From NCBI GenBank assembly GCA_041156905.1, contig JBEBDM010000019.1, positions 1-26,802 on the forward strand: 26,802 bases of DNA. The letters run 5' to 3'. A program made the position numbers and the translations under genes. The notes under the pieces are model-generated. The model was not told the DNA's origin, searched no databases, and worked only from the letters and a program-made list of their open reading frames with translations. This document shows, piece by piece, positions 1 through 1,021 of this stretch (position 1 is the first letter of the stretch; each line of letters begins with the position of its first letter). The stretch comes from Actinomycetota bacterium. GTDB taxonomy: Bacteria > Actinomycetota > Acidimicrobiia > Acidimicrobiales > Ilumatobacteraceae.

Positions 1-1021
1 CCGGTGCGGGGCCGTCGACGAGTTCGAGCCCGGCTTCCTCGTAGTAGTTGCGGACGTCGTGACAGGCCGCGACGGGGTTCCCGCCAGGGATGCCGGCCTC
101 GAGCCACGGGGTGCCGGTGGCAATGGCGTGCAGCGCAGCCAGCACGTCGGGGACACCATCAGCGTCGACCGAGCGACCCACTGCGGTGAGGCCGCGTCGG
201 GCGAGGCTCCGGTCGTACGCCTTCCGCATCCCGCGCGCCTCGTCGACCGCGGCGGGGAGCGTCGGGTCGTAGCGCGGCGGGATGGCGCACGAAACAGGGG
301 AGTCGTCCGACTCGATCACCTCGGGGTGGTCGACGAGGACGGGACCGCTCGGCGCATCGAGCAGGGCCAGGGCGCGTGTGATGACGTCGGTCTGGAACGC
401 CGGGTCATTCGGCTTCCCGAGCGGACGGCCGAGGGGGAACTCACAGTGCAGGGCTCTCGGTGGCGAGACCTTCTCGCACATCGGCCGGATGGAGGAGAGC
501 ACGACGGTGGCGATCCCGGCGGCTTCGAAGACATGGGCGAGCACACTCACGGTGCGCGTACAGAGAGGTCAAACGGGAGTGAGGAGGACGACATCGACTC
601 CGTCGTCGCGGAGCGCTGCGGCCGCCCGGGGTCCGCTGTCGAGACGGATGGTGGCGACGTCATCGGGCTGGTTGCCGGCGAAGGAGACGTGCCGTGGTGC
701 GACCGAGCCGATGATTCCCTGCGCGGCGAGTTCCTCGAGGCGGTCGATCGGATAGACGACGTTGAGGTCGAGCAGGAAGCCGGTGTGGTCGAAGTTCGGG
801 CTCCAGTGACCCATCACGAGATCACGGCGCTCCCTGTCGATCAGCCGGAACTCGGTGTCGACGGCGGAGAACGCGCCGCCATCGGAGGGGTGGAGCGCAG
901 CGGAGGTCACGATGGCGACGCGCGACTCGGAGAGAGGCCGGGGAGTGACCCAGGCAAGGGTGTCGAAGGTCGGGGCGGGAAGGCCCGCCGCGAACTGCCG
1001 CATCGTGTCGTCGCCGCTCAT
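1..1021 (-). CDS. PrdB/GrdB-like (glycine/betaine/sarcosine/D-proline reductase selenoprotein B family) selenoprotein with UxxC motif; 3' end runs off the window; at least 340 aa; in-frame TGA at 569-571 read as Sec151
   Basis: ORF 569..1021 has family motifs (RVAIVTSAALH, GHWSPNFDHTG..DLNVVYPIDRLEEL, DGVDVVLLTPV) and ends at TGA. I translated past it by hand: U-PLC-TRTVSVLAHVFEAAGIATVVL...PPRALHCEFPLGRPLGKPNDPAFQTDVITRALALLDAP..., with no stop for 189 codons down to position 2. This matches the C-terminal half of PrdB/GrdB proteins as I recall them. Confidence 0.88.
541..557 (-). promoter_or_regulatory. Candidate bacterial SECIS hairpin
   Basis: Minus strand reads TGA + 11 nt (CCTCTCTGTAC) + GCGCAC-CGTGA-GTGTGC: a 6-bp stem (one G-U pair) with a GU-containing 5-nt loop. 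Spacing and size match the minimal E. coli fdhF SECIS (17-nt stem-loop 11 nt after UGA). Confidence 0.65.

Follow-up and report, generated by a model that had tools for sequence, protein, structure and literature searches.

The stretch of DNA analysed here, hereafter the window, comprises 26,802 nucleotides from an Actinomycetota bacterium of the family Ilumatobacteraceae (GenBank assembly GCA_041156905.1, contig JBEBDM010000019.1), and the minus strand of its first kilobase carries a gene related to prdB, interrupted by an in-frame TGA at codon 151, which is predicted to be read as selenocysteine (Sec). The window is the entire contig C19 of a metagenome-assembled genome (MAG) of 2.4 Mb, which is distributed over 388 contigs and 85% complete. 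Four features define the gene.

1 to 1021, minus strand: predicted PrdB-like selenoprotein gene, codons 1-340 of about 384, delimited by translation with TGA as Sec (U), a contig overlap, PrdB and GRDB matches, and orthologues in 80 loci.
1019 to 1021, minus strand: ATG start codon with AGGG about 8 nt upstream, assigned from the sequence; orthologues begin at the same site (MNGDQAMRA...).
569 to 571, minus strand: UGA codon 151, predicted Sec, on the basis of TGA in 80/80 loci and in 30 full-length matches from 27 further genomes, and of Cys in 50/59 unsplit homologues.
560 to 562, minus strand: TGT codon of Cys154, the putative resolving Cys of the UxxC pair, invariant in 68 aligned sequences and opening helix 154-167 in the structural model.

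The minus-strand open reading frame (ORF) starts at the ATG at 1021-1019 and runs through 150 sense codons to the TGA at 571-569, in the context LLTPV-TGA-PLC (...VVLLTPV-TGA-PLCTRTVSVLAHVFEAAG...), after which the same frame remains open for 189 codons, to base 2 of the window. Since bases 1-121 of another contig of the same assembly, C27, overlap the window start by exactly 121 identical bases (window 1-121), both contigs can be joined, and C27 supplies 44 further codons (...GGRAMEDWFF...WFYMVPGHR; ...GGRAMEDWFFAQTEAGRTMLAARAAMRDAGVKFPIWFYMVPGHR) and a stop, giving a protein of 384 aa. The opposite strand is likewise open, over 365 codons, and because long open frames are common in DNA of 69% G+C, the open frame by itself is no evidence. 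GC by codon position is alike before and after the TGA (0.72/0.49/0.85 versus 0.75/0.53/0.85), protein conservation is present in both halves, and unsplit Cys homologues of 380-400 aa align with the translation from end to end. Judged by these sequence comparisons, the two apparent ORFs are one gene, with a predicted product of about 384 residues. An initial annotation, made from the sequence alone, had proposed a single gene of at least 340 codons with a U151-x-x-C154 motif, overlooked by standard annotation, and had quoted peptides (TRTVSVLAHVFEAAGIATVVL, EFPLGRPLGKPNDPAFQ) that are indeed present in the translation; the single gene stands, and public gene calls do split it into ORFs of 150 and 227 aa.

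Alternatively, the TGA could be a true stop, either separating two genes (150 aa and about 183-227 aa) or reflecting a nonsense mutation or sequencing error. The split annotation by gene callers in all public records examined fits such an arrangement, as does a GTG six codons past the TGA, which gives a plausible second ORF. When 5.8 billion proteins were searched for homologues, two classes were recovered: full-length proteins of 380-400 aa with 45-57% identity, and nearer relatives with 73-81% identity, present only as C-terminal fragments of 225-228 aa. Two of these nearer relatives were examined; in both, an ORF of 150 aa precedes one of 227 aa without a change of frame, and U151 lies in TPVUPLCTRT. 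That the Cys-form homologues are single polypeptides argues against two separate genes.

The codon itself is conserved. An orthologue scan, taking one genome per species, yielded 80 loci with 65-81% identity over residues 1-340, all from MAGs of Acidimicrobiia (Ilumatobacteraceae, Acidimicrobiaceae, Microthrix, Iamiaceae), and codon 151 is TGA in every one of them. In a family sample of 60 genomes from other genera within the same family, 27 carry the gene, and all 30 full-length matches from these 27 genomes, second copies included, contain exactly one TGA, down to 37% identity. Because all 80 of 80 species, and diverged paralogues as well, have TGA at this codon, a sequencing error or a recent pseudogene is ruled out. 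Four genomes (G024, G026, G028 and G039) each hold two PrdB-like copies, 37-57% identical to the window gene and with one in-frame TGA per copy, which indicates that several Sec-containing paralogue lines exist. Two orthologues 74-77% identical to the window gene come from records titled ‘Bifidobacterium sp.’ (L021) and ‘Bifidobacterium breve’ (L025); L025 falls within the Acidimicrobiia Sec clade of the tree described below, and the taxonomic labels of both records look wrong. A further orthologous locus, L086, is apparently marine, judged from its run label ERR599092.

Among 59 unsplit homologues, the residue aligned with U151 is Cys in 50, Gly in seven and Ala in two, while Cys154 is invariant across all 68 aligned sequences and Cys245 is nearly so. 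A maximum-likelihood tree unites the Sec forms, beside one Cys clade, and places the Gly/Ala-151 forms (P0004, P0005, P0006, P0008, P0009, P0020, P0022, P0070 and P0082; alignment A3) in a single well-supported clade. Proteins of this last clade (TPLGPMCTRTVC) are full-length and keep Cys154. The initial annotation had called for homologues with Cys or an aligned TGA at position 151 and had named other residues there as a counterargument; the Gly/Ala minority does not outweigh the 80 TGA and 50 Cys forms.

Immediately behind the UGA lies a small RNA element, with a possible extension.

541 to 557, minus strand: candidate hairpin of the selenocysteine insertion sequence (SECIS) type, GCGCAC-CGUGA-GUGUGC, recognised by pairing, covariation, RNAalifold, third-position entropy and its absence from Cys-form homologues.
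537 to 561, minus strand: possible lengthening of the hairpin at its lower end by two pairs, G-C and Y-G, set off by a 2x2 internal loop, taken from the RNAalifold consensus (pairs 11-35 and 12-34, alignment A2).

The hairpin spans 17 nt, begins 11 nt past the UGA and comprises a 6-bp helix closed by a 5-nt loop. In a 35-sequence alignment, 100% of its cells are paired, and covariation is seen as a change of G.U to G-C together with a change of the adjoining C-G to U-A, in the same 10-12 sequences; RNAalifold recovers the same helix without prior input. Of the six hairpin codons, five show a third-position entropy of 0 bits over the 80 species and the covarying Arg codon shows 0.61, compared with mostly 0.7-1.96 bits in the flanking codons; the helix is missing from Cys-form homologues. 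This freezing of synonymous sites exactly over a hairpin 11 nt downstream is hard to reconcile with a true stop. For the lower extension, no two-sided change was observed and the support is weak. An Rfam search of the hairpin region returned nothing relevant.

Regarding the selenocysteine machinery, selD, selA and selB are present in this genome at 313, 390 and 274 bits, respectively, all over curated cut-offs, with selA and selB adjoining each other on contig C122. The check for sel genes suggested by the initial annotation was thus answered for these three, while searches of this incomplete MAG with ARAGORN, Rfam and BLAST did not recover selC, the gene of tRNA-Sec: ARAGORN listed 41 tRNAs, none with a UCA anticodon; RF01852 returned just ordinary tRNAs, under the cut-off, and Rfam nothing around selAB and selD; and BLAST of relatives’ selC against the MAG gave short T-arm matches only. 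This is the third point in favour of a true stop. Three of the four tested relatives that carry the gene have a tRNA-Sec, at 64-67 bits. A search of this genome for a Sec-containing formate dehydrogenase was negative: the matches lack internal stops and fall well under the cut-off.

The distribution of the gene follows that of selA. In the 60-genome family sample, selA occurs in 26 of the 27 gene-carrying genomes, the exception being a 78%-complete MAG, and the gene occurs in 0 of the 9 other selA-negative genomes, a confinement that again speaks against a true stop. G013, a 99%-complete genome of the same genus as the window genome and one of these nine, has neither selA nor the selenoprotein gene, which suggests that the Sec trait and the gene were lost together within the genus. 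As related genomes are not independent samples, this co-occurrence is supportive and is not a statistical test. Taken together, these sequence data make decoding of the codon 151 UGA as Sec nearly certain, and a true stop at this position would be very surprising.

The family assignment draws on profile matches of graded strength. The PrdB model TIGR04483 aligns almost without gaps, residues 27-221 with model positions 24-218 of 238, at an E-value of 2.7e-36, and scores 125.2 bits with the window protein and 134.1 bits with a full-length orthologue, short of its cut-off of 300 bits. TIGR01918 gives 44.5 and 40.3 bits, below its cut-off of 65.45, and covers model positions of about 199-399 only; likewise, matches to the GrdF, GrdH and GrdB models are confined to their C-terminal halves. 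The Pfam family GRDB (PF07355) matches residues 8-148 at 26.7 bits (26.6 in the genome search), passing its gathering threshold of 22 bits. The homology to PrdB and GrdB proposed by the initial annotation is therefore borne out by the TIGR04483 and GRDB matches. In Clostridioides difficile PrdB, Sec is residue 151, and a U151C variant is inactive (PMC11229817); given the near-ungapped TIGR04483 alignment, U151 of the window protein sits at the place of this residue.

Structural prediction was carried out on an 81%-identical full-length orthologue, for which the AlphaFold2 model reached a predicted local distance difference test score (pLDDT) of 95.3 and a predicted template-modelling score (pTM) of 0.93. 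It shows an alpha/beta core in which U151 occupies the loop connecting strand 144-148 to helix 154-167; residues 257-384 then form an all-helical domain, predicted with high confidence. The PrdB model stops near residue 220. About 145 extra C-terminal residues are present in the protein, part of them encoded in the window itself.

1 to 310, minus strand: segment, within the window, that encodes most of an additional helical domain at the C-terminus (residues about 240-384), lying beyond the end of the PrdB model, predicted to be all-helical and without a Pfam or NCBIfam match.

For this C-terminal domain, no Pfam or NCBIfam family was matched, and the ESM Atlas returned only unnamed clusters of 176-208 aa, which are probably split-gene fragments. 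An exhaustive search placed the domain in 211 clusters at the 50% identity level, in full-length proteins of this family, about 380-420 aa long, or in split-gene fragments, with one exception of 1019 aa that lacks any Pfam domain and probably represents a spurious ORF. In the PDB, no relative was found by sequence and no PrdB or GrdB structure is deposited; Foldseek against the PDB and Swiss-Prot models gave noise only, with template-modelling scores below 0.3, and VIA-align found no match for the C-terminal domain.

If the protein were a genuine B subunit of D-proline reductase, or of glycine, sarcosine or betaine reductase, its pyruvoyl partner, PrdA or GrdE, would have to be encoded elsewhere in the genome. 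PrdB is indeed the best model match, surveys call the family ‘proline reductase PrdB’, the Sec position is that of C. difficile PrdB U151, and the MAG is incomplete. Nevertheless, the scores stay far from the cut-offs (125-134 against 300 bits, and 40-44 against 65 bits for TIGR01918), the protein has an extra domain of 145 residues and lacks the N-terminal half of GrdB, and neither PF09338 (PrdA/GrdE) nor TIGR04480 (PrdA) has a match in this genome or in four larger relatives, in searches for which the 14 control genomes held no positive control and which did not extend to GrdA. No prd or grd genes occur among the neighbours in the 80 loci. The lack of a visible partner noted in the initial annotation extends, for PrdA and GrdE, to five genomes, and such a B subunit is highly improbable. 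Given these negative searches for a pyruvoyl partner, the protein is unlikely to reduce D-proline by the PrdAB mechanism; we consider it quite likely that the protein acts without a PrdA/GrdE-type partner.

The neighbourhood was addressed by three analyses, namely all-against-all clustering of ORFs within about 4.5 kb, tBLASTn of the window neighbours, and inspection of the nearest two genes. Over the 80 loci, no conserved neighbour emerged: no family occurs in more than 11 loci as nearest gene or in more than 17 within 4.5 kb, and position and orientation vary. In the window, a minus-strand ORF at 1038-1472 encodes 145 aa, contains the CxxC motif HCALCDITHG, matches no Pfam family and ends 13 nt before the selenoprotein ATG; divergent from it, a plus-strand gene at 1527-2084 encodes a carboxymuconolactone decarboxylase (CMD)/AhpD-like protein (PF02627, E 1e-10). 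On C27, a ribD gene (deaminase domain plus RibD_C) begins about 12 nt past the selenoprotein stop (L002, G000:C27, 1-1301).

An earlier reader had proposed that the selenoprotein, the CxxC ORF and the CMD/AhpD-like gene form a local three-gene thiol/selenol redox module, an arrangement suggested by the 13-nt spacing and by the CMD family of the divergent neighbour. The CxxC ORF, however, recurs in no more than 6 of the 79 related 12-kb loci, where its distance and orientation vary, and is therefore probably no dedicated partner, while a CMD/AhpD-like gene is near the selenoprotein gene in 0 of 79 and no neighbour family exceeds 11 of 80. Because none of the three neighbourhood analyses found a partner, we reject this module, to which we give very little credence. 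Acyl-CoA synthetase and enoyl-CoA hydratase genes recur loosely near selenoprotein loci, and one Cys form, in a gammaproteobacterial-type locus, lies among genes for acyl-CoA synthetase, CoA-transferase, a short-chain dehydrogenase/reductase (SDR) and a PEP-utilising enzyme; another Cys-form locus has unrelated neighbours. These acyl-CoA-type neighbours are a weak hint of substrate class, too thin for a substrate call.

We propose the following mechanism for a stand-alone PrdB-like selenoprotein. Comparative evidence indicates that UGA 151 is read as Sec by SelB-dependent recoding, steered by the 17-nt mRNA hairpin 11 nt downstream. The core, at residues of about 1-240, is predicted to adopt a PrdB-like, Rossmann-type alpha/beta fold, followed by the all-helical C-terminal domain unique to the subfamily. 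The selenolate of Sec151 would serve as nucleophile or redox centre, attacking the substrate or accepting and donating electrons, and Cys154, at the N-terminus of its helix, would resolve the intermediate to a selenenylsulfide, which a cellular dithiol system could then re-reduce. A dithiol has likewise been proposed to re-reduce the Sec in the PrdB subunit of D-proline reductase (PMC11229817).

By analogy with PrdB, the UxxC motif is likely to be a catalytic redox pair. Redox-active pairs are typically arranged in this way, with the UxxC motif at the start of a helix, which is where the model places it. Could the UGA be decoded and the protein nonetheless be non-catalytic or structural, with Sec or Cys serving, for example, in metal or selenium binding? 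In favour of this, an entire clade has Gly or Ala at position 151 yet retains the fold, the nearly invariant Cys245 could form a metal site with Cys154, and no substrate or partner can be named. Against this stand the layout just described, the family-wide retention of costly Sec machinery and a frozen SECIS, which points to chemistry where Sec outperforms Cys, and the inactivity of the PrdB U151C variant (PMC11229817). A non-catalytic or structural role is thus improbable, if less so than a true stop. Within the catalytic interpretation, the protein is probably a stand-alone reductase or oxidoreductase, and unlikely to be a D-proline reductase. One speculative form of this interpretation, on which we place rather little weight, is a self-sufficient single-subunit selenoenzyme in which the C-terminal helical domain would replace the pyruvoyl partner, the selenolate driving reductive cleavage of a C-N, C-S or other C-X bond; its substrate, conceivably and just as tentatively, might be a small alpha-substituted acid or an acyl-CoA. 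The only hint of a substrate class for such an enzyme comes from the occasional acyl-CoA synthetase, enoyl-CoA hydratase and CoA-transferase neighbours, and if it were true, Stickland-type chemistry would operate in aerobic freshwater and marine Acidimicrobiia through an enzyme class never assayed.

Overall, a stand-alone PrdB-like selenoprotein with a UGA recoded by SelB and the downstream hairpin is, with high probability, the best explanation of the locus. Several observations weigh on the other side. The missing tRNA-Sec and the lack of a positive control in the PrdA/GrdE searches, both described above, are among them. The hairpin is short, and a 76-nt fold of the region is no stabler than shuffled sequence (z +1.76), so that the element is argued from comparative evidence only; alignment A2 was picked by hand to take in variants, and the lone compensatory change may be a single event. 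The existence of the monophyletic Gly/Ala clade indicates that the fold can persist without a redox residue at 151, VIA-align yields generic Rossmann-like matches over residues 28-237 (LacI/periplasmic binding protein and SDR folds, Z up to 8.6), and the selenol/thiol mechanism is inferred by analogy with PrdB.

The practical gain is a correction of annotation: family-wide, public records list two ‘hypothetical’ ORFs, one of 150 and one of about 227 aa, in place of the gene, and, the gene being split in this way, selenium use in abundant aquatic Acidimicrobiia is under-counted. Since the 2005 survey discussed below, the family has ranked among the commonest selenoprotein families of surface waters, yet its name is that of an enzyme of clostridial fermentation, and the obligatory partner of that enzyme did not turn up in the five genomes searched. 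The conserved minimal SECIS, the invariant Cys154, the nearly invariant Cys245 and the private C-terminal domain offer starting points for assay, as does the loss of the gene along with selA in a sister species.

At the RNA level, the closest comparison is the minimal SECIS of Escherichia coli fdhF, which Liu et al. reportedly described in 1998 as an upper stem-loop of 17 nt located 11 nt downstream of the UGA. The window hairpin shares this length and spacing, and has G and U in its 5-nt loop; it differs in having another sequence, no evident bulged U and no Rfam family, and its link to SelB is predicted.

At the protein level, the core is homologous to PrdB of C. difficile and Acetoanaerobium sticklandii over nearly the whole model, with UxxC and Sec at 151, but the whole protein comprises 384 residues here as against about 240 for PrdB, which has no further domain; moreover, searches revealed neither PrdA nor PrdC nor any other prd gene, and the lineage of the host does not consist of Stickland fermenters. 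With GrdB, GrdF and GrdH, residues 9-222 align with positions of about 200-425 of these 435-residue proteins, the Sec region included, whereas the first 200 residues of GrdB have no counterpart here, the score lies under the TIGR01918 cut-off and no GrdE-type gene was found.

The nearest known group is marine. In 2005, the Sargasso Sea selenoproteome of Zhang, Fomenko and Gladyshev listed 42 ‘Proline reductase PrdB’ UxxC selenoproteins as the third most abundant family (PMC1088965), and the Global Ocean Sampling (GOS) analysis of Zhang and Gladyshev in 2008 counted 235 (PMC2398784); later reviews file the family under ‘D-proline reductase’. In the supplement of the 2005 study (PMC1088965), AACY01584242 reads VVLLTPVuPLCTRTV...PPRALHCEFPLGRPLGKPGD... 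and continues into the C-terminal extension. Compared by eye with this entry, the window protein has in common the UxxC motif, homology to pfam07355, LLTPVuPLCTRTV, PPRALHCEFPLGRPLGKPGD and the extension. The surveys, however, lump PrdB-like sequences under one enzyme name without separating an extended, partner-less subfamily, and they lack an organism, whereas the window copy comes from an Acidimicrobiia (Ilumatobacteraceae-like) MAG. Because the surveys of 2005 and 2008 had already recorded the family as a UxxC selenoprotein, it is not new, and the window gene is a further member of a catalogued, functionally uncharacterised family of predicted selenoproteins, not a new kind of system.

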